From assembly GCA_905373785.1 (NCBI GenBank), contig CAJPUK010000001.1, positions 1-59,896 of the forward strand: 59,896 bases of DNA. The letters run 5' to 3'. Made by a program: the position numbers and the translations under genes. This document shows positions 23,852 through 51,113 of the stretch, in pieces. Position 1 is the stretch's first letter. Every line of letters begins with the position of its first letter. This stretch comes from an uncultured Johnsonella sp. (GTDB taxonomy: Bacteria > Bacillota > Clostridia > Lachnospirales > Lachnospiraceae). The notes beneath the pieces are model-generated. The model ran no database searches. It was given only the letters and a program-made list of their open reading frames with translations, and was not told the DNA's origin.

Positions 23852-23942
23852 GACTTTATAAGATTGGCAGAACTGCTGCAAACAGAGATTCTATCAAGGT
23901 TTATTTTATCAAATATAACTTTAATAACTGCATTTAAACGAG

Positions 23943-24028
23943 AAAAAGTAGCCCTAAGACTACTTATTCCCTGTTAGAGTGATATAGGAGTGCATAATGC
24001 ACGTGTGTAACTCAGTTTCCCTTGTTAC
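23943..24028 (-). ncRNA. Putative ~86-nt small RNA with anti-SD seed
   Basis: Own promoter upstream; 5' hairpin GUAAC..GUUAC; hairpin GUGCA-UUA-UGCAC; UCCUAUAUCACUCU linker; terminator AAGUAGUC-UUAG-GGCUACUU-UUU; no RBS-led ORF on this strand. Confidence 0.72.
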
Positions 24029-24034
24029 GACTAA

Positions 24035-24063
24035 ATCATACCATATATAAGTCTATATTGCAA
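24035..24063 (-). promoter_or_regulatory. SigA-type promoter of the putative sRNA
   Basis: TTGCAA-17 bp-TATGAT with TG extension. Confidence 0.75.
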
Positions 24064-24084
24064 GTCTTAAATTCTATTTTTTGC

Positions 24085-24133
24085 AAAAAAAGCCCGAAAC
24101 TTTTGCAAATCACGCTTAAGTCTCGGGCTTTTG
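24085..24133 (-). terminator. Terminator ending the surface-protein module 37103-24177
   Basis: AAAAGCCCGA...TCGGGCTTTTTT hairpin. Confidence 0.8.
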
Positions 24134-24176
24134 TTACAGCTATATAAATCAAGCTGCAGTATGTGGGTTTATTGCT

Positions 24177-27100: not shown

Positions 27101-28721
27101 GCTTTCCACCCATACTGCCCGCAAAGCTTGCGTTGGCAAGGTTATTGTTATCAAGGTTGTAAGTAACTACCACCTCGGCGGAACCTTGCGGAGCGGAACC
27201 TGCATTAACGGTAAAGACAGGAGTTCCTGTACTCCATCCGCTATTTGACGGAGGAGAAAAGTTTGAGTTATCATACTGTGTTGAATTACCTACAGATATA
27301 GCCGGCGGCGGATTGGTTGTATATCCGTCCAGTACCGGAGCATATACAGTATAGTTGCCTCCTGATGTAGGAACCTTATATACAAACTTGTCATTAGGAG
27401 TACCGACTGATGCACGTGCCGGTCTGGTAGCTGTAGATGAGTTAATGTCAGCCGCTATATTGCCGGCTACCTTAGCTGCAACTTTATCCGTAAGATTTAC
27501 ACCGTTGGTATCCTCATATCTTACTGACAAGGTCATATAGTAAGCAGGATTACTTGTATAATTATATGTTACCGTCAAACCTTGGTTGATCATCTTACCG
27601 GTAATCATACCCTTGGTGGCAATCGGATCCGTTACAGGTTTATAGGTAATTCCTCCATTGCTAAGTCCCAAAAGGCTTGAGCTGGAAGTGACCGCATTGT
27701 CGTCCGCATTCTTGATATCTACAGAACTCAGCATATACCTGGGTTCCGTATCTCCTCCAACCGGCTCTATAAGACTGCGATCCGGTTTGATATTTTTAGT
27801 GGCAAGATCCGTATTAACCGCAAACTCTCTAAGAGTTCTGTCTACAACAGGAGTACCTCCGTCAAGTTTATGCTTTACCTTGATACTGAATAATTGACTG
27901 TTATCAACCTCATACCTAAAAGCAACTTCAAGCGGTTTATTAACCATGGTACCGTTAACCTGACCGTTCTCATACTTAAAGTTCTTGCCGGTATCGCCTG
28001 CAAATATGTGATCTCCATTGGTGGTATCCTTAAAAACATCAGGATTGCTGCTCATCTTTACCTTTGAGCTTACACCGCCGACAGCGGCAAGCTTATAACC
28101 CGGTATAATCTTCGGTGATGCCTGCACACCTTCCAATACATGCCTGCTTTCAGTAATTTCTACATTCAACTCTGAAGGAACCACCACATCGGTACTTACA
28201 GGTTTGTGACTTTCTTTGTATTCATATACCTTATCGGTAGAAGGATCCGCAGCAAGTACCGCTATGTACTTTGTCCCATCTACATAAGGATAATATTGCT
28301 CATCCATAAAGTTTTTATTAGAATGATTATAAATTGATGCTTTATCCCTATACCAGCCGGTGATTACATAACCGTCAAGCTTAAAATCTTCACCATTAAA
28401 AGTTGCATGGTTACCTGTGTGGTTAAATCCCCCGTTCCAGTAAGGCATATATATATTGCCGGTACTATTAGCTAAAAATCTTCCTGTTGTCGGTGCTCCG
28501 GTAGTAGTAGGTATTGAATCACCTGGATTTTTAACTGGCGTAAGCTGATTTGGGTTTATAGTAATATTCTGCACCGTACCTACCGACGGAGTCATTTCTG
28601 TGAAATCAAAAGCTATATCACCTACAGCCGCATGTGCCGGCACTGCCGGTGCTGCCATGGTAAGCACCATGGCAGCAGTCAGTGTAACTGCAAGTTTTCT
28701 TTTAATATTTATCTTTTTCAT
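24177..28721 (-). CDS. Giant surface protein, shaft-only type (1514 aa)
   Basis: Signal peptide (AHA-A); MucBP-like and InlB-B-repeat-like units (GY...GW), FN3-like units, helical FIVAR-like segment, Gly/Ser linker, C-terminal cell-wall-binding repeats (GKWYYL, TPDGYKVN). Confidence 0.85.
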   Translation of the reverse strand: MKKINIKRKLAVTLTAAMVLTMAAPAVPAHAAVGDIAFDFTEMTPSVGTVQNITINPNQLTPVKNPGDSIPTTTGAPTTGRFLANSTGNIYMPYWNGGFNHTGNHATFNGEDFKLDGYVITGWYRDKASIYNHSNKNFMDEQYYPYVDGTKYIAVLAADPSTDKVYEYKESHKPVSTDVVVPSELNVEITESRHVLEGVQASPKIIPGYKLAAVGGVSSKVKMSSNPDVFKDTTNGDHIFAGDTGKNFKYENGQVNGTMVNKPLEVAFRYEVDNSQLFSIKVKHKLDGGTPVVDRTLREFAVNTDLATKNIKPDRSLIEPVGGDTEPRYMLSSVDIKNADDNAVTSSSSLLGLSNGGITYKPVTDPIATKGMITGKMINQGLTVTYNYTSNPAYYMTLSVRYEDTNGVNLTDKVAAKVAGNIAADINSSTATRPARASVGTPNDKFVYKVPTSGGNYTVYAPVLDGYTTNPPPAISVGNSTQYDNSNFSPPSNSGWSTGTPVFTVNAGSAPQGSAEVVVTYNLDNNNLANASFAGSMGGKLMVGNTEYDASNIAHQVSFIKQNKIASPRTYDLVIPSGKLPTPVADDGYKFVSWQLDKKDGNGYVDITVPGTYTLPDPTPSVPPTPDLVKFKARFAEDPDQWSTFRFQIADSSLTDNGLTTSVKLVNKQGGLPRILKWSDVNTTDLQNAVTAPAGKTVKWFDENSQEMRNDSVLVNNATYKAYAVSPSTGTVNVPTVTPVVDPISGVPSLRVTSAIDTDLRYIVTDQTGRVVLDVPGTSLVAGGNISGTGINPGYTYRVHTALSGAAGITVGQPIPAAGSDISAGSPDVTVPATATPPAVIEDPNNPGRRTIIITPVAPDTEYKLVDAAGNEVYDYVAPISGKVEFTDLDPNVNYTVVPRRSGDTLTAPPNSAGVVVNTGTLTPLVMPRKVSLILPSGMLPQVAKLDGSSVTAQLERLNSVQPGTLVEITLRSIDMSTNNIFSGNFVTTGITNPNITGTYISFTMPNNDVTVQAVYSAPGVTWDSGTPPSSTGGNPVLDQSNGKVAVEVPNITTPGEYRLRIVRDTNVPDTIKDDIQAQEGDTPYTALWQAKAVVEVWNGSAWETYTGNVDALRATFNTGSLTQGNREYRLYESVASASNATRLNGTYEAEWTQANYTGSFETAITNGSVYTFGYIEHPSYNIRIKSTREGSVNIGVFVRRGKSLSDYADKYQAELDREKALPDIDINGITWIFRGLSSSRTEFVEYDDTKIANSDGVIYIYFDNDRKSREDAFGELRKGITEAANIAASANPGTQARIQDAIDEANQVLNMSTPRKASKEELRNAYTKLRNTLMELLGGGSGSGGSGGGSGGGGAMTTNSGKSIKVGTDGTWQLVDEQRHIWHFNLTSGSKITGWARLAYTSNGVTKTGWYHFNSGGDMDAGWFESGGKWYFLSTVHNGFYGEMLTGWYYDTTSGKWYYLDESGAMVVGWYNIGGKWYYLSNTASNNQPYGSLYVSTSTPDGYKVNENGEWIQ

Positions 28722-28738
28722 CTGCTCTCCTTTTCACT

Positions 28739-31700
28739 CTAGCGTACCCACTCACCGTCATGGTTTACTTTATAACCATCCGGTGTAGTCTCGCTTATAT
28801 AAAGTGATCCATAAGGGCGTCCATCATTGCCGACACTGAAGTAATACCACTTATCACCTATCATGTGCCAGCCGACATACATCTCTCCCACTACCGGGTC
28901 GAGATAATACCACTTGCCGTCTTTATAAAGCCAGCCGATTTGCATAACACCGTTTTTCTTGCCGGCTTCTTCCGACATATAGTACCATTTGCCGCTGCTC
29001 TCATCCCTATACCATCCGGTTATAAGGCTTGATTGCTTGTCAAATCTGTACCAGTCTGTAACAAGTTTTCCTTTATCATTGCTATATTGGATCTTAGCCC
29101 ACTTATTATTAAGAGGCAGACCTCCTTGAAGTACGAATGACCATCTGCCGGTTACAGGATTTATCTCCCAAGCACCGTCTACTCCGAGAGTAAAGGTGAT
29201 TTGCGGATTAGATGTGAAAGCACTGGTCTTAGTACCCATTCCTCTTCCGCCGGAGCCTGAACCGCCACCGCCGCCGCCTATACGGGAGCTTAGGTTATTT
29301 CTTCTTTGATCGATAAGCCTGTTCATCTCGTCAACTATTCTTCTCAAGGCATCTATAGCATCTTGAAGCTCAGGGTAGTTAGCCATTCTTTCAGCTATTC
29401 TATCCCACTCGGTATCAAATCTGCCTCTCTTCCTGTCAAGAACATTTTGTGCTATTCCTATAGCTATCTTAAGTCTTTCAACTTCACCTTCCCTAAGATA
29501 CGGATCCAAGGTAAGATTATTAGCCACTCCTACAAGATCGGTCAGATCAACTCTTGCCTTTGCTACAGCCTTTTTATTGGTCTTATAGTAAGCATAGATA
29601 GGCATGGTCTTGGTAACCTCTGAATTCGAATCAAAGATAAGACCCGGAACCGGCTCGTTATCGGTGTCCACCGTATCTATGTTCTTCTTATACCAATCCT
29701 TAAAGATATAGGTTACACCATCTATTCCGTCAAACGGACTTTCAAGGTGCAAAGCACCGCTTCCGTCTACATAGCTTGTTACTACGCCGTAATCCGCAGC
29801 ATACTCACTTGCAGACACATGATCTTTCTTTCTTACCTTAATCTTCTTATAGAAGTTCCTGCTTGTATCATTATCAGGATATACAGAATTCTTTACCGGA
29901 GTATTATCGATAAAGTACAGCTTAAATGTCTTAGCGTATACCAATACATAGGTATGGTTAACGTTGGCATCGAAACTGAAGAGTCCGGCATTGTCCGCTA
30001 CAGGTTCAACTATAGCAATCTGTGTTGCTGTAGTAGGTGTTGTAGCATTCCATGTGGCATCTACATTAAGACCCAGATCCCAGATCTCATAGTCGAGCAT
30101 ATCTGTATCCTGGTTATCAAGCTGCACAACCGCCTTAAGATAAGCATTGGACGGTGAAGCATTTTGCACCAATCTTCCATCTACATATCTTTCTTCCTTG
30201 ATATCAAGGGCGAAGGCTGCCGTGAAAGCGTTAGGATATCTGTTCCATAAGGTTGAAGGCACAGCCTTAACTACATCAACTTCAGGAGTCTTGGCAGTTC
30301 TCTTATTAAATACTATCTTGTAACGTACATCAGCTCTGTTCACATTTATAAGGCTTACATCTGTAGGATTGCTGAGATCCTGCTCAAGCTGAGGTATTCC
30401 GTTAGGATCAAGTGCAAACTCGCCCTCTGAACCGCCTCTTGTAACTTCCTCTACAGGAGCTATCTTATCACCTGCCGGGTTAAATCTCGGAAGGTCGTAA
30501 ACCGCTCTGAATACTACATTACTCTTGCTTAACTTTCCTGAATAATCATTGGAATTTATTCTTCCGGTTACACCCGGGATTCTTCCGTTCATAATTATCC
30601 AATATAAGAAGTGATTACCGTTAGAGTCTGTAGGATCTGCATGTATGCTGAATTCATCATTCTCATGAATTTTGTCATAAGAAGGTGCATTTATAGCCTC
30701 GCCTCTTACGGTTCTTACTTCAACATTGGCACCTATTCCGTTAGTTCTGGTCTCTATGGTGTAGTTTATAGCCTCTACCATATCGCCCGGATTAGCTACT
30801 ACCTGAACACCTGCGTGAATATTTCCAAGCGGTGTCTCTGTAGGATTGCCTTTCTTTCTTGCAACCACTGTATAGGTCTCGCCTATATCAAGGTTATCAA
30901 ATGTTACTGTCGGAGGGTTATTACCCTTTGGTGTCATCCATCCGTTATCAGAGCCCGGATATTGAACTACATTACCGTTTGAGTCGATAAGTGCGTAGTC
31001 GGCATCGGGGTCAGCCGGATTGATTACTATTTGAGCCTTTCCTTCATTATTAGGATCGGCTCCGACAGCCTTGTTGGTATCTATAGAAGGTATGGTAACA
31101 GGCTTAGGTGCCGATACATTACTTCCTCCTATGCTGCTTTCAGGTTGTCCTATTGTAGCTGTTGTATCAGGTCCGCCTTCTCTTACATTGTAAGTTCTTC
31201 CCGGTACCAAGCTCTTAAACTCAAGCTCGGTTCCTGTAGGCGGTCCCGGAAGTACTCCTACTATTATGCCGTCCGGATCGCTTACTACATATACATTACC
31301 CGGTTGTGTACCGTGTACATGTATCTCACCGCTACCGTCAAAGCCTATATGGCCGGTAGCACTGAATGCTCCCGGAACAAGTCCCCAAGTTGAACCTATC
31401 TTACCGAAGTTAGCCTTGTAAGTACCTGCTGTTACGGTATCTGTAGGTTTCATGATACTTCCTGCAGGTGAGGTCCAATTCTTTAACTCATAGTTGGCTA
31501 TAGGAGTGGTAGGAGGTGTTACTACATTGCTCCATACTTCATCAAAGTGAAGATGCTGCGGACTTCCTCCCGGTATATATGTACCTGTAGGATTCACTGA
31601 ACCGAGTGCGGGGTCTGCAGTAACGAAGTCTATATCCACCCACTTGCTCGGATCTTCCACAAGTCTTACATAGATAGTTCTTACTCCCGGCGGCGGAACA

Positions 31701-34700: not shown

Positions 34701-35464
34701 CCGGTTTGCTCGGTGACTATTATAGGACAGTCATCTGATTGATGCATCATAGTATCCGTCTCATTACCTATCCAAAAATCTATATGTGAAGCCGACTTAT
34801 TATGTACGGTATATTCGATAATTACATATTGCTCGTCATCGGATATCTTTACACTTCTTCTTACTTCTACTTTATTATTAGCATTATTCGGGTCAGTTAA
34901 CTCTGTCACCTTACCGTTACCGACATTGGCAGGAAAGTTTTGTAACCTGTTTTTAGTATCGTTTGTGATAGAAGTACTGCCGGGAGTAGAATTTGACCAT
35001 GATATGCTGGGGGTAACCTCAGTCTCGGTACCGAAAGCATACCTTGAGTGCCACCAGTTACCTACACTTATATTGCCCTTATAACCGGTAATAACATCCA
35101 AGTTATAACCTGCCTTAGCGTCAGTTCTGCTGGCTGCCGTTTTTACAGCTGAGATATTAAATGTAGCACTCTTTGCAGAATTATATTGTCTATTAGTAGT
35201 AGGACCATCACCACCACCAAGAGCTGAAGGATTGGGCTCATTTCCCACTACATAAGCCGTACTTTCACCACTGTCATAAACAGCCGGGGCACCGAACTCC
35301 GTTCCGGTCTTGGTATAATCCGTACTTATAGTCTCATCCTGCAACACTGTTGCCGCATGAGCCGTACTGCCTCCAAGTGCGGGCAGTCCGCTCAGTACCA
35401 TAGCCGCTGAAAGTATACCTGACAGCAGTCGCTTATGGACTTTGCTTAATTTTCTTAGTTTCAT
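28739..35464 (-). CDS. Giant surface protein, head + beta-helix + shaft type (2241 aa)
   Basis: Signal peptide; N-terminal head; YYVDP...PYKSI.EA beta-helix entry; GxMP repeats; FN3-like units; Gly linker; cell-wall-binding repeats. Confidence 0.85.
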   Translation of the reverse strand: MKLRKLSKVHKRLLSGILSAAMVLSGLPALGGSTAHAATVLQDETISTDYTKTGTEFGAPAVYDSGESTAYVVGNEPNPSALGGGDGPTTNRQYNSAKSATFNISAVKTAASRTDAKAGYNLDVITGYKGNISVGNWWHSRYAFGTETEVTPSISWSNSTPGSTSITNDTKNRLQNFPANVGNGKVTELTDPNNANNKVEVRRSVKISDDEQYVIIEYTVHNKSASHIDFWIGNETDTMMHQSDDCPIIVTEQTGAGDKDQGITMFASHGDAGEGGDPYQFTDFKLLTHAGNDKLGIGITKRPGTDRSELRSWIGHWEATGNVYHDGFIFVKSKKAFANVGDSAAAFSAYMDMEPHETKTARFAVRMRTAVYYVDPTYTGSSNGFIAKPYKSIKEAVSHMSTNGVTKGYIALQSDAKIDETVDIPSGMDITLTTSEFERPANAPALNSYETTIPEPVAYTAPRKKIIRSEHDKNNPAMQFKGALFNVQGGAKLTVGDVIIDGNSTGGVKANEALITAAAGEVKTRAKSQLINNKLDPDVATNADKASAISITGTATLEMRDGIITGNEAINGSAVHIDSTAAKAMDIAGEVTIDANKNKDTTADNRNQANVRLGSGKVIHVDKKSLDSSSKIGISVVQSPTKTTEGTEAVTFTGTTIPYTGSNFKADKEGTSTVGGSTANTITGTTQSQVPGRIYIQAGMYSLNIYYVDHNGKSMQDPVVHSEFAVQLPSRPKQDVNKSDAAAGMILNKSFPTIFNGWKYSSYTVEPATATGEGVSISSTGDVTGTMPAKNVNITIKLEKIGINYVFDPNNGGAVINKFETVNPGAVASTLGALPQVQRTGYQFDGWFPFNDTNPQNGKYDAGEEVPGGTQLAAYLVPHASAEGTHRYYAKWSPGSGTYPIGITYRNTTASLPLTFGTDTRNLHVDDPINEMPVNVPGYRYATSSRTPNKGVLDPATGSFTGNMPPLGISLLYRYTVDPNTLFNLNVIHVDSAGNIIRTNTPTLQRRAEQPFTVSKITLPGYDYFRTEIAAGADDIPSQFRVGLNGVLLTGIDQLNGQVQGYMPNQDVTIKFIYNSNSASAITRRFTDREELTKVIHSDVTNQTPNGSVSVPAIASMPQLYGYVYDTNSSVNITPPGTQVSANPATGDLFGTMPLSGGVIADYRLSKDMSKWQHINFAFTTNSLGTGTISPTTSARPVLLSDGTAAGDQYAQTFGTIKALGILPTVTPDPYHMVEGWYLDPAGTIPMVDNMKLAIVPPPGVRTIYVRLVEDPSKWVDIDFVTADPALGSVNPTGTYIPGGSPQHLHFDEVWSNVVTPPTTPIANYELKNWTSPAGSIMKPTDTVTAGTYKANFGKIGSTWGLVPGAFSATGHIGFDGSGEIHVHGTQPGNVYVVSDPDGIIVGVLPGPPTGTELEFKSLVPGRTYNVREGGPDTTATIGQPESSIGGSNVSAPKPVTIPSIDTNKAVGADPNNEGKAQIVINPADPDADYALIDSNGNVVQYPGSDNGWMTPKGNNPPTVTFDNLDIGETYTVVARKKGNPTETPLGNIHAGVQVVANPGDMVEAINYTIETRTNGIGANVEVRTVRGEAINAPSYDKIHENDEFSIHADPTDSNGNHFLYWIIMNGRIPGVTGRINSNDYSGKLSKSNVVFRAVYDLPRFNPAGDKIAPVEEVTRGGSEGEFALDPNGIPQLEQDLSNPTDVSLINVNRADVRYKIVFNKRTAKTPEVDVVKAVPSTLWNRYPNAFTAAFALDIKEERYVDGRLVQNASPSNAYLKAVVQLDNQDTDMLDYEIWDLGLNVDATWNATTPTTATQIAIVEPVADNAGLFSFDANVNHTYVLVYAKTFKLYFIDNTPVKNSVYPDNDTSRNFYKKIKVRKKDHVSASEYAADYGVVTSYVDGSGALHLESPFDGIDGVTYIFKDWYKKNIDTVDTDNEPVPGLIFDSNSEVTKTMPIYAYYKTNKKAVAKARVDLTDLVGVANNLTLDPYLREGEVERLKIAIGIAQNVLDRKRGRFDTEWDRIAERMANYPELQDAIDALRRIVDEMNRLIDQRRNNLSSRIGGGGGGSGSGGRGMGTKTSAFTSNPQITFTLGVDGAWEINPVTGRWSFVLQGGLPLNNKWAKIQYSNDKGKLVTDWYRFDKQSSLITGWYRDESSGKWYYMSEEAGKKNGVMQIGWLYKDGKWYYLDPVVGEMYVGWHMIGDKWYYFSVGNDGRPYGSLYISETTPDGYKVNHDGEWVR

Positions 35465-35480
35465 ATTACACTCCTCTCCT

Positions 35481-37103
35481 CTAGTTGAAAATCACAAATT
35501 GGGAGTCGGTTTTATCATCTGTGCCGTGCGCTGCAGTTATCCTGTCTCCAAATCTGTCATTGCCCTTTTTAGAAGAATCATACATATAATAAGATCCGTT
35601 CTTAAATTTAGGGGCACTTGGACTTTCAGAACTGCTTACTCTTGCAAAGAATTGATTATTCATTATTATTATCCAAGAGTCTGAGCCGTCTTTAAGCACT
35701 TTTTTATTACCTTTTACCACTCTGCCGTCTTTGTTTACAACAAACCATGCGTCACTTCCTTGATCGGCATCTTTTACTATTCCGTATCCGATATCTTCAT
35801 TGGCATCAAGTCTCAGACCGTTATAGTAGAACCTATTCAAATGACGCACCAATCTGAATCCTGCTCCGTATGCTATTCCGTTAGGCTTAAATCCGAATAC
35901 TGCCGGTCCGTCTGCGATTTCTATATAAATCTCATCGCCTGTCTTCATGGATCCGTCATTTAATTCGTCCGCTCCGAAGAGGTATAAGTTTCCTCTGTCT
36001 AATGCAGGGATCTCAGAGTGAGCCTTATCCGCAAGGAAGTCCGCCTTACTCCAAGTATCCACTTCATAAGCCTTAGCAAAGGTTCCGTCATAATACATAA
36101 TTACAAAACCTGTCTGCATACGTCCGAGCTTGTCGAAGGCATACTTTTTGTTATATACACTGTATATTTTATTCTTATAAAGTTTGCCCTCCGAATTGGT
36201 TCTGAACCAGCTAAACTCCTGGGCGTTGTAATCATGATCCGACATTCCCTCGTTGGCAACTCTAAATGACCAATAGTCTTTTTTAAGTTGTCCATCGTTG
36301 GAGTCTGCGGAATATCTGTACTTTGCATCGCTTGAGGTGGCATTTACTGTGGCATTGCTTACTGATATTCCGGGTATCATAATACCGTTCTCATCAAATA
36401 CATAAGTTTTACCGTCTATCTCCTTTGTCTTAGCAGAGGATAATGTATTGCTTTTCACCTTTTTGCCGTCTGTATCAAAGTACATCCACATCAGCCCATA
36501 ATCCGAGTATTCCCTTTGACCTAATTGACTGCGCATATCCGTTTCTGCAACTTCATTGTACAAATACCATTGTCCGCTGTACATAGCTCCGTCTTCTCCA
36601 AAGTAATATAAAGCATCTACGAATTTGTTACTTGTACTTTCATCCACCGGATATCCGTTCTCATTAACAAGTCCGGTAACCATCTTGCCGTCCCCGTCAA
36701 ATATGTACTTTTTCCCGTTTATTGACTTGGGTGCAATCTTTTCCGAAATACTCTTATAAGCTTTGCCGCTTTCATTAAAATAATACCAATTTGTAAGATT
36801 GGCATCATCCGCATCAGCCAGTCCCTTCCACTGGTTGACATACATGGCACCATCACTTCCCACATAATAGAGATTATCATTATCTTTTATAAGGCTGTCC
36901 TTAAGCATAAGTCCGTCTGCCCCCAGATAATAATATTTTTTATCCTCAGATCTTCTCCATGAGTCAGTTACGATGGTTCCGTCGTTCTCAACATACTTCC
37001 AACCACCGTCTTCTTCTTTCCATTGACCTGCAAGTGCAGGTAAACTTAAAGAAATTGTAAGCAGCGAAGTCATGAGTCCTACTTGCCAAAACTTAACTCT
37101 CAT
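35481..37103 (-). CDS. Cell-wall-binding-repeat protein, first gene of module (540 aa)
   Basis: Signal peptide ALA-G; INGKKYIFD, KYAFD.LGRMQTG, LNDGSMKTG; paralogue of 49446-51113. Confidence 0.85.
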   Translation of the reverse strand: MRVKFWQVGLMTSLLTISLSLPALAGQWKEEDGGWKYVENDGTIVTDSWRRSEDKKYYYLGADGLMLKDSLIKDNDNLYYVGSDGAMYVNQWKGLADADDANLTNWYYFNESGKAYKSISEKIAPKSINGKKYIFDGDGKMVTGLVNENGYPVDESTSNKFVDALYYFGEDGAMYSGQWYLYNEVAETDMRSQLGQREYSDYGLMWMYFDTDGKKVKSNTLSSAKTKEIDGKTYVFDENGIMIPGISVSNATVNATSSDAKYRYSADSNDGQLKKDYWSFRVANEGMSDHDYNAQEFSWFRTNSEGKLYKNKIYSVYNKKYAFDKLGRMQTGFVIMYYDGTFAKAYEVDTWSKADFLADKAHSEIPALDRGNLYLFGADELNDGSMKTGDEIYIEIADGPAVFGFKPNGIAYGAGFRLVRHLNRFYYNGLRLDANEDIGYGIVKDADQGSDAWFVVNKDGRVVKGNKKVLKDGSDSWIIIMNNQFFARVSSSESPSAPKFKNGSYYMYDSSKKGNDRFGDRITAAHGTDDKTDSQFVIFN

Positions 37104-40500: not shown

Positions 40501-42732
40501 TCTCGGGTCTATACCCTTGAATACTGCAACATATGTAAATACTGTATTTTCTGCTACATCTGAATCGGATACCTTTCTTGTCGGATCAAATGCCCCGGTC
40601 AAGCCATGTGCCGGGTCATATGTTGTAACCCTTGTAGTGGCATTGCCATGTTCATCTGCAAGATACCAACCATCAAACTGATAATTAGGCTTCGGATTTA
40701 CATTGGTTCCTATAACCGGTGCAAATGAAGCAACGGTGTCATTTATATTCTTTGAAGGGAATACTCTTGTTCCGCTGATAACTCCACCGCTACCTGCTCT
40801 AAACTGTACTTTAGCCCACTTTGCAGGGTCTTTTTTGAACTTAATTACTAAGGTTGCATTACCGGTGGTGTTATCAGCTATACCACCATTAGCCTCGGCT
40901 TTTAGGTTTACCGGAGCTGTAAGCTCTGTATACTTTGTATCAGGATGTCCCTTCCAGTATACACAATCAAAAAGATAGTCCTGACCTGCCGGCGGAAGTG
41001 ATGTAGCCGGTGTACCTGCAGTACCTAAAACATCAGCCAAGGTATTGTTTATAGAAACATTGGCAGCATTTTTAGGATCTTTCTTAAGGGCTCTTTGACC
41101 CGGTAAAGTAAATCCTGTTGCTGAAACTCCTTCCTGCTCAAAGTTAACCTTTGTCCAGAAACTCGCCACTGAGGTTCTCTCTATATAGTTTACCTTGATA
41201 GTTCTTCCACCTGCAGGTTCGCTTGTAGTTACCTTATATACCAGCTTCTTTTCTACAGTACCGTCAGGTTTTACAACACCGGTTGGTACTATATCCTGTT
41301 TTGCAAAGTCTGTAGTACTTGGTCCCAAATCAACGTTTGGAGGATACACATATCCTTCTTGTACAGGCAGCACTAACTCATATTCAGTAGGCACTTGCTT
41401 TGAACCTGACTCACTTGTAGCAGTTGAGGTCAAAGCAGGCATTGCAACATTATGATTGTCTACAAAACTTACCGCTACCGGTCTTGTTACACTGGTATCT
41501 ACATTGTACTTGGCTCTGATTATAATATTGTGGTTCGGCATCTTAAAGCTGAAACTTTTATTTGTAGTGTTAAAGAACTCTGAAGTACGCATATCCGCAC
41601 CTTCAGCCTTACCATTTATATACTGTATTGAGTATACACCGCTTGTAGCAAGTGCATTCGGTCTAAGACCCGCAAGGTCGACCATGTCCGTTACAGAGCC
41701 TGTCTGTAATACATAAAGTGAATGCGTATCATTTGCCGGCTTTTCAGGAAGAGTACCGGTAACCTGTGCTCCTGCATTAAATTGGTAGGTTGTATCATCA
41801 TCAGGTTTAAGTAGACTTCCATCATTTGCATTTACATACTGTATTCTAACGGTAAACTTCTTAGCTGTATCTACTTCATACTCGTAATCAACAGTCAAAT
41901 CACGGTTAGGCATGATACCTGATACTTTCTGAGTGGTAGTATCAAGCTTAGCCAAATCATTTGTACCAAAATCAGCTGTATCATCCCAGTTTCTGTACTT
42001 GGAAGCACTGATAGCAGAGCCTCCGTTAGCATAAGCTTTAACCTTATATCCCGGAATATCTCTAGCCGGTGTAGCACTTATTTGTTCATTATCTTTTTGA
42101 TTTGCGGTTACTAATTTATCACTTGCCCAAGAATCGTACTTAAAAGGTATAATTCTGCTGTCATTATGATTAAGCACATTATTGCCCTTAGTTACAGTAC
42201 CTGACTTTACAAAGTAATGTCTTACCCTAAAAAAGTGCTTTCCTGTCTCGGTAGATGTACTCCACTTTGCTTTAAGGTATGTACCGTCGGTTTGAAAAGC
42301 ATAAGGAAGATGTTGATATTCTTCATCATTCTCATCAAACCAGCCGTCAAAATGAAAGCCCTTCCATGTAGCACTATTTGCACTATTATCATACTTCGGC
42401 ATTGCAGGTCTTGGTCCTACACCATGATTATCAATTCTACCCTCTTTCCACACTGTTGCATCGTTAAATGGCGCTGTATCAATCAGTCGGTTACCTGCAT
42501 TACCAGATACTAAGTATTGATTGTTTCCATTCTTAGCTATAGGAAATCCTGTATTATAGTTAGTACTAAATGACAAATCCGGTCCATTTGCTACATCAAA
42601 CATCAAATTTCCCGGACCTGCCGGTGTTGCTGCATACACCTCTTTACCGGTAAGTCCGGTCATCATGCTCGAAAGCATGATGACTGAAAGTCCGGCAGAG
42701 ATTATTCTTTTGCTTTTTTGCAATAATCTCAT
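37543..42732 (-). CDS. Giant surface protein, shaft-only type (~1729 aa)
   Basis: Same domain order as 24177-28721 with additional helical FIVAR/GA-like repeats; GGAGGAG RBS before ATG 42732. Confidence 0.85.
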   Translation of the reverse strand: MRLLQKSKRIISAGLSVIMLSSMMTGLTGKEVYAATPAGPGNLMFDVANGPDLSFSTNYNTGFPIAKNGNNQYLVSGNAGNRLIDTAPFNDATVWKEGRIDNHGVGPRPAMPKYDNSANSATWKGFHFDGWFDENDEEYQHLPYAFQTDGTYLKAKWSTSTETGKHFFRVRHYFVKSGTVTKGNNVLNHNDSRIIPFKYDSWASDKLVTANQKDNEQISATPARDIPGYKVKAYANGGSAISASKYRNWDDTADFGTNDLAKLDTTTQKVSGIMPNRDLTVDYEYEVDTAKKFTVRIQYVNANDGSLLKPDDDTTYQFNAGAQVTGTLPEKPANDTHSLYVLQTGSVTDMVDLAGLRPNALATSGVYSIQYINGKAEGADMRTSEFFNTTNKSFSFKMPNHNIIIRAKYNVDTSVTRPVAVSFVDNHNVAMPALTSTATSESGSKQVPTEYELVLPVQEGYVYPPNVDLGPSTTDFAKQDIVPTGVVKPDGTVEKKLVYKVTTSEPAGGRTIKVNYIERTSVASFWTKVNFEQEGVSATGFTLPGQRALKKDPKNAANVSINNTLADVLGTAGTPATSLPPAGQDYLFDCVYWKGHPDTKYTELTAPVNLKAEANGGIADNTTGNATLVIKFKKDPAKWAKVQFRAGSGGVISGTRVFPSKNINDTVASFAPVIGTNVNPKPNYQFDGWYLADEHGNATTRVTTYDPAHGLTGAFDPTRKVSDSDVAENTVFTYVAVFKGIDPRPGVYIAPSLDAGNDENNGTGTITVSGLSDRRRYILTDVAGNILDNKAGTALSGGKFAPLAIGRKYKVYEVEATDTTSTGNISAVNPKSDPAEVIVPVAATSKIQSQSDKVTLSSPVANTEYALVNSATGEVKANPTLDNGKLVFAGLTANTNYVLVARPSGDTTSFTDPAILESGTPTYTTSGIAVAATYKITVTGSGAKIESITRSGTPLGAADGFTPGSTSYDRLQKKDRVRITADNEVTHPNRWKFNNWELNLGGPVTGITSAGREYAFDMPSSDVIINAVHKYDSSVAGATAPSIDEYNSSLTFSPMNGRFSIDPAQINSYKNTIVNSTSTDHDYINDPPAVISGRESSRKVNYVVKFNTRNILASESNAIRALSSDPDLIRFAFTVDVSFTRRFNSTIVALDGSSNIPAMNVYAKLDPSSRGGFDYKLYRVAAGTVTDVSPLGLSDLADETFMMTGVNPNAGETYILAYKKKNTVKIIDTKSYLPVTDPARTTEHTVEVPEGSALEDVATYTAIGFDTDAIIDTAPTDGRKFKLLGLYKNQVYDNQNQNNNHKFLPTTTVTDSITLYTHYQYHETRRTEIDALEAKITEIDALLNNPNISTAARGQLTAAKVAARSAIDKVGPISTAAELTAMKDTTVQAAIDAANNSLTIGNSRTELNNSIGLSNTLLADTTKPVSADDKQAIEDLRDRASLLLTDPSATQAQIDAMRQQLNDLIDQAEARADKVVELNTVINELRGLAPNSKLNNADRDAINQAIAAAESLRDKTSNPADPSQVQATIAELLAKKAELEQLVRDVKAKINNSGSGGSSGGSSSGGGGPKAKNATVAGINYKTYRNETEGDWRQNSNGSWNFVLKNSAEPLKNSWAAIVYGSGESQSLATYAFDAQGNMRTGWIQDDKGLWYYMSDTQGSSYGAMVKGWIFSAGKWYYLSPVTGSMMTGWQEVEGNWYLLAGDGSLYVNTTTPDGFPVDANGVWLRETP

Positions 42733-42745
42733 TATCACTCCTCCT

Positions 42746-45700
42746 TTAATTTATCAATGCACCGTCTGCTCCGACTTTATATCCGTCAGGAGTAGTTGTG
42801 TTAACATACATTGATCCCATTGGTTTCACTCCGTTATCAAGGTAATTCCACTGCTCTGCCTTAGCATCGTATGCATAGGTTTGAGCTGAAGCCTGGGTTG
42901 CAAAGTAGTACCATTTACCTGCTACTTCTACCCAACCGGTTCTCATCATTCCTGTATCAGGATCGAGATAATACCAATTCTTATCAGTATCGTTGTATAC
43001 CCAACCGGTCTTCATCTTACCTTGGAAACCGTCTTTATCTGTGTTGCAATAGTACCAATTACCCTTCTCATCCTGGAACCAACCTGTATCCATCAGTCCG
43101 TATGAGTTAAAGTGGTACCAACCGTCAGCTGAACGATCACCTGTGGAGTACTCTAACCTGCCCCACTTGCTTGTCAGTCTGATGCCTCCTGTAAGCACAA
43201 AGCTCCATCTTCCGTCTGCATGCTGCTCCCAGTTTCCGTTGCCGCCTACAGAGTAGGTCTTCGGTGCTGTAGGTATGAATGGCTTATCAGCAGTTCCTCT
43301 TCCGGTTCCGCCGCCGCCGCCGCTGCTTCCGCCGCTGCTTCTACTGCTTACTGTACCGGCATATCCTTCATATCTGGGATTAAGCTGTTGCTGGAAGAAT
43401 CTTTCAGCAAGTGCCGGCACTCTCTTTACTCTTTGCTTTGTTGCAGGATCTGTAACAGTAAATGACTCATATCTCTTGATAGCATCTATCTCTCTTAAGT
43501 TAGGCTTTCTCTTCATTAACTTATCGGCAACTGCCGGTGGCAATGTAGCTGCTATCTCATCAAGCTGTGCCTCCGTCATAGTTGCATATTTTTCAAAATC
43601 AGCCTTGAGTGCCGCATCAGCCGGATTAGTACTGTTAAGTATTGAAAGCATACCCGGTCTTGCAGCTATATTCTTAAGAGTAGCGATTCCTGCCTTCATA
43701 TCTGAGAACTCGCCTCTCTTTAAGAAGTTATCATTTCCGAGATTTACAAGTCTGTTTATTAAACCGTCCAAATCTCCTGACGCCTGCTGAACTTGTTCGC
43801 TATCATCATCATAAGCTGCATATACTACAGTCTTCTTTTGTATAGGTGACGCCGGGTCATATGCTCTGTATCCTGCCTTACCTACGGCTAAAGTATCTGT
43901 ATAGCTCCAACCGTTGCCTCTCTTGGTATATGTTATACCAAGTCTTTCATACGGGCTGAGTATAGGAGATTCGTTCATCCAATCTGTAAATGCATCATTA
44001 GAATCCGAACCTCTTCTTATCTTAACGGTATGAAGTTTGTGTGCAGGATTCTGGCTTGCTGTAGGATAGAAATCTACATGGTTGTTAACAAAGCTCAACT
44101 TAAATGCCTTATTGTATACAAGTACATATGAATGTCCTACTCTTGCCTGGAAGGTAAAGAGTCCGCTAATTCCGTTTCCTTCTGCAGGATTTCTGCTCAT
44201 AGCAACCTCTCCGACCACATTGCCGATAGTGTCGTCTATCTCATATAACTTGTAATCAAGCATATCTATATCCTTGTCATCAAGCTGTACATAGCTTGTA
44301 AGTGTACCCGGATAGTTTGAAGGATGTCCACTTGGAAGTTCAACCCTTCTTCCGTTTACATATCTTTCAATATTTACACCTATCTGCCATGCCGCTGTGA
44401 AAGCTTCAGGAGCAGCCGGTGTATAGATTGCCTGAATTGCATCGGATGCTGTAGCTGTAGCAGCTGACTTTTTGTAGATCACCTTATAAGTTACATCTAC
44501 ATGGTTTGTATCCATAAGCACTCTGTCTTCAGCTGTAGTTAAGTTATTCTGAAGTGCTTCAATACCTTCCGGATCAAGTGCTATCTGCTTAGAACTTCCG
44601 CCTCTTACCTCATCCTGTACATTAGCAAGACTTGGAATAGTTGGTTGCACATTGTAGACAGCTGATATTACAAGGTTAGCCTTTCTTATAGTTATATCAA
44701 GGTTCCTTTGTTGTGCAGCAGTACCTATAACTTCCGTAGCTGCACCTATAGTGACTTTCCACTCCTTAAAGGTATTGCCTTGAGCATCGGTTGCCGGTGC
44801 TAAAAGACTTACTCTATCACCTTCATGAAGCTCTTCATAAATATCTGTAGGAGATGAAAGTATATTGTTACCGTCTCTTGTTACAGACTGTATAGCCATA
44901 CCCGCTTTTCTGGTTTCTAAGATATAGGTAGGTACTTCCAATTCTGAACCCGGATCTGAGTTGAACTTGGAACCTCCGTCTATCCTATCCGCTACGCTGG
45001 CATTAGATCCTGCAGGTCTTGTAATTACTGTAAAGTTCTTACCAACCGGAAGGTTACTGAAAGTTACTGTCGCAGGATTGCCTCCTGTAGGTGTCTGCCA
45101 TCCGTTAGGTGCCTCAGGTGCTATAGTAACAAGGTTACCCGCATCATCTACTAAAGCATACTCCAGTGTCGGATCGGCAGGGTTAATAGTTATCTTGGTC
45201 TTTCCGTCATTATTAGGATCAGGTGTTACAGTATAGTTATTATCAAGTACAGGTACCGTAACCTTTGTCGGAGCTGATTTCTCTCCTGCCGGCACACTGT
45301 TTATTGATGCACCTGCTGCAATAGTTACAGATTCACTGACTTCATACACTTTATACTGTGTTCCTGCCTGTAAGTTATCGAACACTACTGTGTTCTCCAA
45401 AGCATTGCCCGGCTTAACATTAACTACATTGCCGTCCTTATCGGTTAATACATACTTGTATCCCGGCTTGGTATCATATACGGTTACTCTACCTCTACCA
45501 TTAGGAAGCAGACTTCCCTCTGCCTGTTTTGCACTTGGAGCAAGTCCGAATACCGAAGGATCAGGCTTTACCTCAAGCTTATAGGTCATACCGTTTTGAA
45601 CATTATCGGTTAATGCCACCGCATTACCGAACATGTACCAACCGTCATAGAGATAGTTAGGCTCTATGTCATAAGTAAGACCTGATGCTGCTATAACCTG

Positions 45701-48700: not shown

Positions 48701-49432
48701 ATCTTGTTGAAATAAATACCCCGATCTTGGAGAGTAGTTACACATATAGGTTTTAAAATCTCCGCCACCGGGAAATCCTAAGTTGGTTGCCTTATATGTA
48801 TTTTCTATACCCTGAGTGGGGTCATTGGTAACAAGTTCAAAGACCTCTTTACCGGCATTTCTGTTCTGCATTCTTATGCTGTTATTAGATCTGTATAACC
48901 AGGCAAAATCATCATCGCCTATCATAACATCCGCACCGCTACCAATTCTTACCACGTGTGGAGTAGCTGATCTATTGTAAGTAGTATACTCTACTACTAT
49001 CAACTTTTCATTTTTACTCGGATAAATCCTCATCCTAAGCTCTACATCACCATCTACTTTAACCTCACCATTTTGATATGGAAAACTTTGAGCTCCGCCA
49101 GAGCTGTCATTTCCATCAATCTTATAATTAGTTTGATAAGTTCCCCAGCCATAAATAGCCTGTACATTTGTAGAATAGTTTGCCGTATATGGGTCTGCAC
49201 TTCCGATTAATGTAGGGTCTTTAATACCTGCAATCCTATAATTTCCATTGCCACTCCACTCATAAGCCGACACCGTACCGCCATTATTAGTATCTGTGTC
49301 AATTTTAGGCGTAAGCTCTGTACTCGCCTTAGCTTCCATCCCTCCCACAGCGGGAAGTCCGCTTAGGGACAGCGCAGCTGCAAGGGTCAGAGCTAAGAAT
49401 CTCTTTCCTTTTTGAAACAATTTTTTCATCAT
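42746..49432 (-). CDS. Giant surface protein, head + beta-helix + shaft type (~2228 aa)
   Basis: True start MMKKLFQK (AGGAG RBS); collinear with 28739-35464 (IVVEYTTYN vs VIIEYTVHN, INPADP..YAL.D, ERYV.GR, IDMLDY). Confidence 0.85.
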   Translation of the reverse strand: MMKKLFQKGKRFLALTLAAALSLSGLPAVGGMEAKASTELTPKIDTDTNNGGTVSAYEWSGNGNYRIAGIKDPTLIGSADPYTANYSTNVQAIYGWGTYQTNYKIDGNDSSGGAQSFPYQNGEVKVDGDVELRMRIYPSKNEKLIVVEYTTYNRSATPHVVRIGSGADVMIGDDDFAWLYRSNNSIRMQNRNAGKEVFELVTNDPTQGIENTYKATNLGFPGGGDFKTYMCNYSPRSGYLFQQDGLTGNIFNSSVDSYGGRLGDSGLNYSWEINLGAYQKVVKKVAFATRGTSLYVSYLHGHDDSTGTGEPDHPYKTLAYAFSKIGGSMGYIFIQDYPDFTSDADKHMPDIPAGKTVVIQSADYDHTGAAVSPGTYVTLKRGVSYNQPLFNVQGGLRLSNIILDGNKGAATGNDSALIEASGNAKVFIQSGTTLQNNKVTSDNKGSAINMASGCELEMNYGKITGNVSKTGGAVCHNVNRVAVKNAVEIKGNTDDGGKELNVVITAGKKIEVGGPLVDNDSGASADIKVTVKGVPTASVGTTINSPAQEIIVAEPSASYESSVADVPAFLANFSFDEEATVNAAGLTLESGRYNFDGQVQGATTNNKKKVVVRKAGKLVNFELVEFPDGGSLEPQLWDGTTNPVANPAPVSYENGATVTTDNILPPAMPAGAKYTFKDAIIDGGGGTLTVPQADGYKLTGTMPNNDVTVTYRFERKTSTIKFDVNGGTPATIAPRSGKQLSDNPNRTLPTVTKYGYRLKNWDPTPNSSGGEIQPGGELPEKFPKGQTAGLPTDDEVTYKAIWEVDPDVVSQLKVTHKNAAGTIEFTDPVKSPHPVEDDLSFDKLSIPGYLLDVATSNTTPTGIGSFNAGTGKYTGDMPSQDLDVNFRYVPDTSPSAKKTLTVKHIRTSDNVQIGINTIQLAAEDDINASVGAAPLTGSAVAGLTFTEAVEVEQGGNPGLPGTYIRAVEGAYDSSQNAYIGKMPNQDVTLVFKYNATGSGQNLNVSYIDNDAQDPNLKRIANLKDSNNTDIDNPNVSAVSAGQPIETQDITTYMNIYGYNTTPHSMTKSNTSASPYFDTDYHFKGLMPIGGDINVTYTYSRDASKWKRITYKPVEGATLGRGLGRPADLVTNGGELYVDVLMAGDARSYTWENIKDMNLVPEVTLADNTYFVHDGWFIDANNNGKKDSDENLLEDSSNFSNDVTVLPNVIKTPGAWFNVTLDIGDHINKTAGVDTVNTRATETLAQVIAASGLTYDIEPNYLYDGWYMFGNAVALTDNVQNGMTYKLEVKPDPSVFGLAPSAKQAEGSLLPNGRGRVTVYDTKPGYKYVLTDKDGNVVNVKPGNALENTVVFDNLQAGTQYKVYEVSESVTIAAGASINSVPAGEKSAPTKVTVPVLDNNYTVTPDPNNDGKTKITINPADPTLEYALVDDAGNLVTIAPEAPNGWQTPTGGNPATVTFSNLPVGKNFTVITRPAGSNASVADRIDGGSKFNSDPGSELEVPTYILETRKAGMAIQSVTRDGNNILSSPTDIYEELHEGDRVSLLAPATDAQGNTFKEWKVTIGAATEVIGTAAQQRNLDITIRKANLVISAVYNVQPTIPSLANVQDEVRGGSSKQIALDPEGIEALQNNLTTAEDRVLMDTNHVDVTYKVIYKKSAATATASDAIQAIYTPAAPEAFTAAWQIGVNIERYVNGRRVELPSGHPSNYPGTLTSYVQLDDKDIDMLDYKLYEIDDTIGNVVGEVAMSRNPAEGNGISGLFTFQARVGHSYVLVYNKAFKLSFVNNHVDFYPTASQNPAHKLHTVKIRRGSDSNDAFTDWMNESPILSPYERLGITYTKRGNGWSYTDTLAVGKAGYRAYDPASPIQKKTVVYAAYDDDSEQVQQASGDLDGLINRLVNLGNDNFLKRGEFSDMKAGIATLKNIAARPGMLSILNSTNPADAALKADFEKYATMTEAQLDEIAATLPPAVADKLMKRKPNLREIDAIKRYESFTVTDPATKQRVKRVPALAERFFQQQLNPRYEGYAGTVSSRSSGGSSGGGGGTGRGTADKPFIPTAPKTYSVGGNGNWEQHADGRWSFVLTGGIRLTSKWGRLEYSTGDRSADGWYHFNSYGLMDTGWFQDEKGNWYYCNTDKDGFQGKMKTGWVYNDTDKNWYYLDPDTGMMRTGWVEVAGKWYYFATQASAQTYAYDAKAEQWNYLDNGVKPMGSMYVNTTTPDGYKVGADGALIN

Positions 49433-49445
49433 ATCACTCCTATCT

Positions 49446-51113
49446 CTACGGTCTGTAAAGTATTTCTTTTGTAGGAATAGCACTAAGATCAGGTGAGTTG
49501 GTAGGTGCAGCAACTATTAAATCTAAATACTTCTTGCTGTCACTATCATACTGATAGTATCCTGTAACTCCGTTCTTTGTGTGCCACTTCGGTGTATATC
49601 TTGACTCATAAGCCGCAAGCTTATTGTCCATTATTATAAAATATGCACCTTCCTTATCCTTTACCACTTTTTTGTTACCCTTTACTATTCTACCGCTGGT
49701 ATCTACTACTTGGTAGAACAGTATTCTTGGACTATATGCCACTTCCTCAGTTACAGCCACAACTCCGTAGCCGTAGTCTTCGTCGGCATCAAGTCTCAAG
49801 CCGTTAATATAATACCTGTTGGTTTTCTTACCTAATATATCCTTGCTTCCGTAAGCCTTTCCTGTAGTAGGAGAAAAGCCGAAGGTACGCACTCCGTCAG
49901 CAAGCTCTATTTGAATCTCTCCGGTTTGCATAGAACCGTCATTCAACTTATTAGGTGAGAACAAGTAGAGGTCATTTTTATTGCCGCCATAGATGTCACC
50001 GTTTGCAAATTGCTCCGATGTAAATGCATCCATGTCATATCTGGCAACAAATTGCACATCTGTATTGTTGAAAACCACAAATCCGGTCTGCATTCTGCCT
50101 AAGCCGTCAAAGGCATACTTCTTACCATTAATGGTACGTATGGTATTCTTAAGTATTTTACCCTTGGAATCTGCATAGAACCAACTGCTTTCCTGATCAA
50201 TAAAGTCTTTTTGATCCATGATCTCAGAAGGATACATCCAGATCCACTTGTTCTTAAGCATCTTGCCGCCATCATAGCCCGAGAAGTACTTTACATCATT
50301 CTCCATTGTCGGGTTGGCAGGCTGTGCATTGCTTACACTTGCCTTTGACCACCATGGAACCATAATTCCGTACTCATCGAAGGCATACAGCTCTCCGCCT
50401 ATTGTTTTTTCTTTTATGGTATCTGTGTCAGTAGCGAATTTTTTGCCCTCACTGTCGAAATACATCCACATACTGCCATAGTCAGAGTAGCTTCTTCCAC
50501 TTACAGTACTCTGTATATTAGAGCCGCCCACGCCTGTGGTATCACTTATATAACCGTAGTTAAGCCACTTATTGTTATATAAAGCTCCGTCGTCACTTGC
50601 ATAGTACATCGCTCCCACGAAGGGATCTTCAGTCTCTATAACATTTCCCGTCTTGTCTATAAAGCCTGTAAGCATCTTGCCGTTCTCATCAAAAGCATAA
50701 TCCTTACCATCTACTTTTCTCTTGAAACCACCTCCTTGATTTACATAGGCTCTACCATCTGAACCGAAATAGTACCAGCCCGGTTGATAGTTGCCGTCAG
50801 GATCCATCTCAGGGGTAACTTCCAGCCATGAGTTTTTCAGCATCTTGCCATCCCCATCTACATAGAAGGTACCGCTGCCCCATTTGAAAATGCGGCTTTT
50901 GAGTATGGTTCCCTCTGAAGAAAGATAGTACCAATAGCCCTTACTCTGTTTCCAGACATCTTTCAACGGCATATCATCCCTATCCAGATACTGCCACTCA
51001 CCGGTCTCGTTAGTCCAACCGGAAACCGCATGTGCCGTGCCTGAATAAGCAAAGCCGAGTCCAAGTGCCAAAGATAAAGCAAGTGCTGTCTTGATTACTC
51101 TTCTTTTTTCCAT
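49446..51113 (-). CDS. Cell-wall-binding-repeat protein, first gene of module (~555 aa)
   Basis: Signal peptide AHA-V; YSDYG.MWMYFD, LGRMQTGFV, LNDGSM.TG, NGLRLDA shared with the 540-aa paralogue. Confidence 0.85.
   Translation of the reverse strand: MEKRRVIKTALALSLALGLGFAYSGTAHAVSGWTNETGEWQYLDRDDMPLKDVWKQSKGYWYYLSSEGTILKSRIFKWGSGTFYVDGDGKMLKNSWLEVTPEMDPDGNYQPGWYYFGSDGRAYVNQGGGFKRKVDGKDYAFDENGKMLTGFIDKTGNVIETEDPFVGAMYYASDDGALYNNKWLNYGYISDTTGVGGSNIQSTVSGRSYSDYGSMWMYFDSEGKKFATDTDTIKEKTIGGELYAFDEYGIMVPWWSKASVSNAQPANPTMENDVKYFSGYDGGKMLKNKWIWMYPSEIMDQKDFIDQESSWFYADSKGKILKNTIRTINGKKYAFDGLGRMQTGFVVFNNTDVQFVARYDMDAFTSEQFANGDIYGGNKNDLYLFSPNKLNDGSMQTGEIQIELADGVRTFGFSPTTGKAYGSKDILGKKTNRYYINGLRLDADEDYGYGVVAVTEEVAYSPRILFYQVVDTSGRIVKGNKKVVKDKEGAYFIIMDNKLAAYESRYTPKWHTKNGVTGYYQYDSDSKKYLDLIVAAPTNSPDLSAIPTKEILYRP

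Follow-up and report, generated by a model that had tools for sequence, protein, structure and literature searches.

Among the sRNAs (small RNAs) of the Firmicutes, RsaE/RoxS and the streptococcal cia-dependent csRNAs are of the anti-Shine-Dalgarno kind, and the csRNAs also pair with the start codon. Sponges that act on bacterial sRNAs are likewise known, such as RosA for RoxS and FsrA, SroC for GcvB, AgvB, and the 3' external spacer of a transfer RNA precursor for RyhB; to our knowledge, these have one or two sites and are mostly by-products processed from other transcripts. The motifs of CsrB, RsmZ and CrcZ bind protein (CsrA, or Hfq/Crc), and many tandem short motifs in an unstructured RNA are a hallmark of such protein-titrating RNAs. 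VR-RNA is a regulatory RNA driven by a LytTR regulator, and in eukaryotes ciRS-7/CDR1as is a multi-site sponge for a microRNA. Here we describe an sRNA gene located in a 59,896-nucleotide (nt) stretch of DNA from an uncultured Johnsonella sp. of the Lachnospiraceae (assembly GCA_905373785.1, contig CAJPUK010000001.1, positions 1 to 59,896; the window), together with a second, predicted RNA, encoded on another contig of the same genome, that carries a tandem array of sites complementary to it. The genome of the window is referred to as G000, and other G and L numbers denote the other genomes and loci compared.

Judged by its sequence and conservation, the segment 24028-23936 on the minus strand is a real, highly conserved sRNA gene of oral Lachnospiraceae, and the array RNA is probably its main conserved partner, acting by base pairing.

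The small RNA gene and its conservation

The sRNA gene is single-copy in G000, and the whole unit extends from promoter to terminator at 24063-23936 (-). The promoter (24063-24035) has a -35 hexamer (24058..24063), a 17-nt spacer, and an extended -10 (24035..24043) in which TG and one further base precede the hexamer; a -35-like hexamer 17 nt 5' of the -10 and the same TG-n-hexamer layout are present in 10 of 10 genomes read. The predicted transcript is about 88–93 nt long (23936..24028), with its start placed 7 nt past the -10 and its end in the U-run, and coincides with a covariance-model match of 97.2 bits at 23935-24030. It folds into a 5' hairpin of variable sequence (24007..24028), a second hairpin (hairpin 2; 23990..24002) of 5 bp with a 3-nt loop that contains an anti-start-codon triplet, a G-free single-stranded seed of 18 nt with two anti-Shine-Dalgarno-like motifs (23972..23989), and an intrinsic terminator with a 14-bp stem followed by the U-run (23940..23971). 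The seed is unpaired in both the minimum-free-energy (MFE) and consensus folds and invariant in the alignments, and seed and hairpin 2 jointly read like a sequence complementary to a ribosome-binding site plus start codon. The MFE is -26.5 kcal/mol (z -3.9), and 1 of 200 shuffles folds equally well.

About 40 nt of the sRNA, comprising hairpin 2, the unpaired stretch and the surrounding bases, are invariant, and the 5' hairpin and terminator stem vary freely in sequence with their pairing kept. In 86 model matches (45 distinct sequences) 96.9% of the cells pair, and compensatory changes occur in 16 of the 27 stem pairs, including 7 of 8 in the 5' hairpin and 9 of 14 in the terminator; all five pairs of hairpin 2 are identical in 45/45 distinct sequences. 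The alignment was fitted to the covariance model, which somewhat favours structure, and in this setting none of 500 shuffles matches the observed level of pairing and slid registers pair in 35–58% of cells.

The core is present in all four congeners, and a 36-nt core pattern (≤3 mismatches) matches 7 of 401 family genomes (one per genus) with no control matches. An exact 30-mer of the core is found in 18 species records, including several species of Lachnoanaerobaculum, Johnsonella (J. ignava among them) and Lachnospiraceae oral taxon 107, and an exact 23-mer in 61 metagenome contigs; no viral contig is matched by the 30-mer or the 30-nt core pattern. Weak model matches in G025 and G153 were rejected, as they consist mainly of the terminator and the seed is absent. 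One sRNA-bearing record (L090) is labelled as a Bacteroidaceae bin and scores 93.8 bits, the same as G155; its contig is probably mis-binned or mislabelled.

The genomic surroundings of the gene differ between genomes. It lies between a giant gene and a Fur-family gene in G000 and its nearest relative G004 only, is flanked by clpB and dihydroorotase genes in G002, G071, G072 and G263 and by mscL and dihydroorotase genes in G001 and G003 (J. ignava), and is near the dihydroorotase gene in G148. Its orientation is flipped between G072 and G071 amid the same neighbours, and the unit is therefore autonomous. In the window, the upstream neighbour is the terminator of the surface-protein operon (24082..24138, -; -29.9 kcal/mol, z -7.1), which lies outside the sRNA. 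The Fur-family regulator gene downstream (23385-23777, -; Pfam FUR, E 1.2e-28) has its own consensus-like promoter (23851-23823), and the same gene is located 3' of the sRNA in G004.

The original prediction, made from the letters of the window, had described an orphan, self-contained minus-strand unit with a promoter, two hairpins and a terminator, lying just past the terminator of the surface-protein locus, with a centre complementary to ribosome-binding sites. This description holds: promoter position, stems and terminator are conserved across genera, the locus terminator is at 24138-24082, the unpaired centre is an anti-Shine-Dalgarno and anti-start-codon sequence, and the covariation it had asked for is present in the stems. 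A search of Rfam 15 gave no family for the sRNA at gathering thresholds, and nothing credible at E≤10 over 23936-24028 (-). At curated thresholds Rfam matches the window just once, with an abiF RNA motif at 56920-56956 (+) that scores 43.2 bits against a cut-off of 37. The proposed linkage to the surface-protein locus does not extend to the relatives, as that neighbourhood is not shared beyond G000 and G004, and the gene is beside dihydroorotase in G001, G002, G003, G071, G072, G148 and G263. Its own positionally conserved promoter, an intrinsic terminator and a conserved unpaired seed are features that the gene shares with trans-encoded base-pairing sRNAs.

The opposite strand does contain the 17-codon open reading frame (ORF) at 23997..24050 (+) that had been raised as a caveat, with a well-spaced Shine-Dalgarno sequence and start codon, and the functional product could in principle be this peptide, which might be a type I toxin, and the minus-strand RNA would be antisense to it. 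We regard this as barely credible. Both length and sequence of the peptide differ past codon 4 in relatives, and its first four codons lie over the invariant core of the RNA; the changes compensate one another within the RNA stems, and the terminator includes G-U pairs that are possible on the minus strand only. In every genome it is the minus strand that has the promoter and terminator, and the plus-strand fold of the region has a z of only -1.75. The ORF was rejected as the functional product, the conserved small hydrophobic peptide typical of type I toxin-antitoxin systems being lacking.

A predicted RNA with tandem complementary sites

The stronger conserved partner of the sRNA, by a wide margin, is an RNA on another contig that the original prediction overlooked. 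A genome search for the complement of the core locates it in G000 at about 2380-2870 of contig C102, between a branched-chain aminotransferase gene and a zinc-ribbon gene. Tandem Repeats Finder reports a period of 38 nt and 7.7 copies, corresponding to about 16 half-units, each of which carries an exact complement to 10–11 nt of the unpaired stretch of the sRNA; the last site reaches into hairpin 2 (27 nt, 89% identity), and an intrinsic terminator comes after it. No other cluster of seed-complementary 9-mers exists in G000 outside the sRNA locus, with 34 in two 500-nt bins versus 9 in the next-best bin, and other 9-mer clusters were rejected as chance matches. We note that contig C172 has, at about 2900-2925 (+) between divergent genes, a 15-nt near-complement of the seed that resembles a unit near the end of the C102 array.

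Arrays with a promoter, C-poor sites and a terminator are present in 11 of 14 sRNA-bearing genomes, with 3–21 sites each. The G004 array is in the same place as that of G000; those of G002 and G071 were found by synteny 3' of the aminotransferase gene rather than by motif, and further arrays are in G072, G263 and G148. Array and sRNA are less than about 5 kb apart in G071, G072 and G263, in the order aminotransferase, array, dihydroorotase, sRNA, clpB. Two array units in tandem are found in L. saburreum, L. orale, oral taxon 107 and strain OBRC5-5. In the Lachnoanaerobaculum-group loci L211–L214, the tandem units consist of a short RNA of about 130 nt with 2–3 sites and a long array, each with its own paired direct repeats, -10 and terminator.

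The complementarity is specific to one strand and to one part of the sRNA. The arrays of G000, G004, G002, G071, G072, G263 and G148 have 21, 16, 5, 3, 6, 9 and 12 non-overlapping complementary 8-mers, respectively; dinucleotide shuffles of these seven arrays have a mean of 0.3–1.05 and reach the observed number in 0 of 1000 cases, with the exception of G071 (5 of 1000), and the opposite strands have 0–1. In all seven of the arrays analysed the sites map onto the predicted unpaired stretch 23972-23989, and in several genera the motif is an exact complement over 10–14 nt on the correct strand. The C content is 4–11% and the base composition is strand-asymmetric; the G000 array folds worse than its own shuffles (z +1.96), and every array ends in a strong stem and U-run on the site-bearing strand. 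For 65-nt array windows the cofold gain is -11.6 to -30.4 kcal/mol, compared to -14.0 for the first percentile of messenger RNA (mRNA) start regions. Six array loci have no matches in Rfam 15. The array has one defining feature of a sponge, being a separate RNA with the seed complement; its transcription is predicted from its promoter and terminator.

A paired-site pattern matches 3 of 151 family genomes (one per genus), all three of which carry the sRNA, and single seed-complement sites in other genomes are mostly intragenic. Some gapped patterns missed known arrays, including that of G000, because the unit spacing exceeds the allowed gap. A permissive scan for 7-mer clusters, covering 79 loci from metagenomes and genomes in windows too short for a co-occurrence count, gave six clusters; four were inspected and rejected as AT-rich false positives, and the remaining two, L249 (11 sites) and L255 (8 sites), were taken as arrays without inspection. 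A CRISPR array with a partner resembling trans-activating CRISPR RNA was also rejected, the units being contiguous with a period of 38 and lacking unique spacers; the ORFs read beside arrays encode the aminotransferase, the zinc-ribbon protein and a transporter, with no dedicated search for cas genes having been made.

Two other roles for the array, in which the match to the sRNA would be incidental or secondary, are addressed by these properties. It could titrate a protein as CsrB, RsmZ and CrcZ do, or a single protein could bind both RNAs, as tandem short motifs in an RNA that folds worse than its shuffles would suggest. No GGA motifs are displayed in hairpin loops, and the array is less structured than its shuffles. 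Its motif exactly complements, over 10–14 nt, the unpaired segment of an sRNA that is itself independently conserved, on the right strand and in several genera; we consider a protein sponge very unlikely. The array could also act as DNA, with its tandem 19-nt units serving as iteron-like protein-binding sites and the sRNA match as a by-product. This is highly improbable, given that the array is chromosomal and syntenic 3' of the aminotransferase gene in several genera, that promoter and terminator always bracket it on the site-bearing strand, and that it is C-depleted on that strand; the 30-nt sRNA core pattern also has no match among viral contigs, where the array itself was not searched.

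All seven of the array promoters read have two direct repeats with a 21-bp period, the second ending 29–30 nt before the -10, and lack a good -35; in four Lachnoanaerobaculum-group genomes, both units are preceded by repeats laid out in this way. In a weight-matrix scan of G000 the array-promoter site scores 33.1 and the next best, which is intragenic, 16.1, and the scan shows no second operator site in that genome. The available portions of two papers describe LytTR regulators as binding direct repeats that come in pairs, about 12 bp from each other, immediately upstream of promoters (PMC6193735, PMC4227749), and one of them describes AgrA as driving RNAIII via such paired repeats (PMC4227749). 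The array promoters have this LytTR-type arrangement, with two spaced direct repeats closely upstream of the -35 position laid out as in the available part of PMC6193735.

Two LytTR regulators are encoded in G000, one of which (Response_reg+LytTR) is matched by a close orthologue in 11 of the 12 sRNA carriers that were searched. Among 151 family genomes (one per genus) it has close orthologues in four, all of which have both sRNA and array. Neither a histidine kinase gene nor a peptide gene was seen beside this candidate regulator in G000. The repeats and the co-occurrence suggest that a LytTR-type regulator controls the array, a claim that is less certain than the pairing of the two RNAs.

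The polarity could also be the reverse, with the array RNA as a LytTR-induced multivalent effector like RNAIII or VR-RNA, and the sRNA as its antagonist or processing guide. The activator-type promoter on the array, the consensus-like promoter on the sRNA, and the presence of two such putatively induced RNAs in tandem in Lachnoanaerobaculum are all consistent with this. The array evolves fast, however, being strongly different between G000 and G004, and the sRNA is invariant, which is the pattern expected of a decoy tracking a constrained regulator; moreover, the array is purine-rich and Shine-Dalgarno-like, so that it has no obvious mRNA targets of its own. We consider the reverse polarity quite unlikely, and retain the array as the putative decoy.

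Candidate messenger RNA targets

The seven genes named in the original prediction all encode proteins with choline/cell-wall-binding repeats. All are minus-strand genes, which makes the logic of the pairing sound, and each of the six quoted complementary stretches is present at its position when read on that strand. For G000, a simple in-house heuristic based on ORFs and Shine-Dalgarno sequences gave 2020 genes, and start regions were ranked by RNAduplex energy against the unpaired stretch (2006 regions) and by RNAcofold, which includes intramolecular folding (2003 regions). Six of the surface genes were included; the seventh, encoding a 540-amino acid (aa) protein (35481-37103, -), has no usable gene-list entry at that start and was left unscored. 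Its start region has a weak Shine-Dalgarno sequence and little sRNA complementarity, as had been anticipated.

Candidate sites on the minus strand are in the start regions of the genes for the 1514-aa cell-wall-binding protein (28707..28756; duplex rank 6, cofold rank 4), the 2241-aa protein (35450..35499; 12 and 81), the 2228-aa protein (49418..49467; 23 and 75) and the 1729-aa protein (42718..42767; 43 and 120), with a weaker candidate in that of the 555-aa protein (51099..51148; 223 and 23); the sixth gene is at 517 and 619. None of 20000 random sets of six genes equals the duplex ranks, including when the sets are drawn from strong-Shine-Dalgarno genes, and the enrichment of these genes for complementarity is real within G000. 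The claim of complementarity to six of the seven genes was too generous, as four are clearly above background. The 7-base motif of the original prediction is rare and not generic, occurring in 22 of 2006 start regions, four of them in the locus.

The sRNA might be a locus-linked regulator that mainly represses the adjacent surface-protein genes together, as originally proposed, and the G000 ranks by both measures and the concentration of motif-bearing start regions in the locus are in its favour. The whole class of cell-wall-binding-repeat proteins also shows a modest shift in G000 (n=30; Mann-Whitney p 0.016) and in G263 (n=25, with the complete contig ranked; p 0.028), but among strong-Shine-Dalgarno genes this shift is lost or marginal (p 0.27 and 0.06, respectively). 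In the G263 ranking, the orthologues of the genes for the 2241-aa and 1514-aa proteins reach only fractions 0.131 and 0.347, and adjacency to the locus is confined to G000 and G004. In three of the four best surface genes the match is in part the stop codon of an upstream translationally coupled gene, and the surface genes are not independent because they are paralogues in one operon. The array is also a much stronger partner by cofold energy. The enrichment of start regions in G000 thus stands, and the coordinate repression of the surface set as the main function of the sRNA is unlikely.

A further complementary site in G000 is on contig C55 (about 3118-3132, +), just past the stop codon of a 452-aa gene, where 14 nt are perfectly complementary to the foot of the terminator and the adjoining 3' end of the seed; this is either a site in a 3' untranslated region or a chance match.

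The gene directly 3' of the candidate LytTR regulator encodes a secreted protein without a Pfam family, and its start region is the best of 2003 in G000 by cofold (rank 1) and has rank 20 of 2006 by duplex energy. Its counterpart in G263 ranks 16 of 2206. Duplex energies are comparable in G004, G002 and G071 and weakest in the array-less G001 and G003, and the Lachnoanaerobaculum start region has, as read by eye, a 9-base match with one G-U. At L284 (G072:C6:36431-37132) the frame of the LytTR regulator runs without a stop into the secreted-protein gene, giving an open frame of 540 aa that is either a fusion or an assembly error.

A proposed decoy circuit and its relation to known systems

The sRNA would be a trans-acting RNA of about 90 nt with a strong, probably constitutive promoter, and its anti-Shine-Dalgarno seed suggests a translational repressor that blocks mRNA start regions. 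A LytTR-type response regulator may switch on the array RNA through the paired direct repeats, and the array RNA would then act as an inducible multi-site decoy, or sponge, that titrates the sRNA and frees mRNAs otherwise blocked at their start regions. The secreted protein encoded after the LytTR regulator is a candidate for such an mRNA, as are, in G000, four genes of the giant cell-wall-binding-protein operon. Assembled into a three-part circuit of oral Lachnospiraceae, in which a signal-responsive LytTR regulator induces one or two multi-site decoys that titrate an invariant constitutive sRNA and so release secreted and surface proteins, including the protein of the regulator operon in a positive loop, these steps form a proposal that we put forward only tentatively.

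Several points weigh against the array as main partner and decoy. No array was detected in the sRNA carriers G001, G003 (J. ignava) and G155, and the sRNA core is equally invariant there, so the array cannot be all that constrains the core. For G004, G072, G148, G263 and the four Lachnoanaerobaculum-group genomes, there is some circularity in the site counts, because their arrays were found via the seed complement. The carriers are all members of a single group of related oral genera, and the co-occurrence of sRNA, array and regulator may thus reflect shared descent rather than provide independent evidence. On the target side, the energies come from RNAduplex and RNAcofold and not from an accessibility-based target predictor; among 859 orthologue pairs (G000–G263 reciprocal best hits) there is no significant conserved mRNA target (best q about 0.8); and the link to the post-regulator gene was noticed post hoc, its ranks alone being such that they would fail a genome-wide multiple-testing correction. 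Transcription of both the sRNA and the array is predicted from promoters and terminators, and the decoy direction is less certain than the pairing itself, as the array could instead be a regulated target or an effector.

If the circuit is as proposed, the core of about 40 nt that includes the seed would be unable to drift because of its multi-site partner RNA, and the circuit would be a bacterial counterpart of multi-site microRNA sponges. A dedicated inducible gene with up to about 20 sites for one sRNA, conserved across genera, would mean that multi-site competing RNAs evolved in bacteria as they did in animals, and, provided that surface or secreted proteins are true targets, a cell-signalling regulator would be connected through the circuit to the surface of dental-plaque bacteria. 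It is testable in Johnsonella and Lachnoanaerobaculum, for which cultured type strains exist, and J. ignava, in which the sRNA is present and no array was found, might serve as a natural control. In the portions of the literature available to our search there is no description of this sRNA, of sRNAs in Johnsonella or Lachnoanaerobaculum, or of tandem multi-site bacterial sponges. Anti-Shine-Dalgarno sRNAs and sRNA sponges are already known kinds, and the new element is the tandem multi-site gene, the putative decoy.

The sRNA resembles RsaE/RoxS and the csRNAs in being a stand-alone short RNA with its own promoter and terminator, and in that the unpaired stretch between its stem-loops is rich in pyrimidines and complements ribosome-binding sites; like the csRNAs, it is also complementary to the start codon. 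It differs from them in lacking any sequence or Rfam relation, in having a seed that is U/C/A-rich rather than a run of C, in its roughly 40 nt that are invariant across genera, and in having a dedicated multi-site partner RNA.

The array RNA, like RosA, SroC and AgvB, is a second RNA with the seed complement that could titrate the sRNA, but it is a free-standing gene with 3–21 tandem sites, unstructured, and with an activator-type promoter. It shares with CsrB, RsmZ and CrcZ the many short-motif repeats in one RNA and, as proposed here, its induction and titration as its action, with the difference that its motif is the Watson-Crick complement of another RNA. Its promoter is reminiscent of those of RNAIII (agr P3, as described in the available part of PMC4227749) and VR-RNA, in that paired direct repeats lie just 5' of a promoter that has no good -35 and would drive a non-coding RNA; unlike these, the array has a candidate regulator only, with no kinase or peptide gene seen beside it, and looks like an sRNA decoy rather than a direct regulator of mRNAs. 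The many tandem sites in one RNA for one small regulatory RNA are also a feature of ciRS-7/CDR1as, although the likeness is in logic only, as the array belongs to another domain of life, is predicted to be a linear, terminator-ended transcript, and involves no Argonaute.

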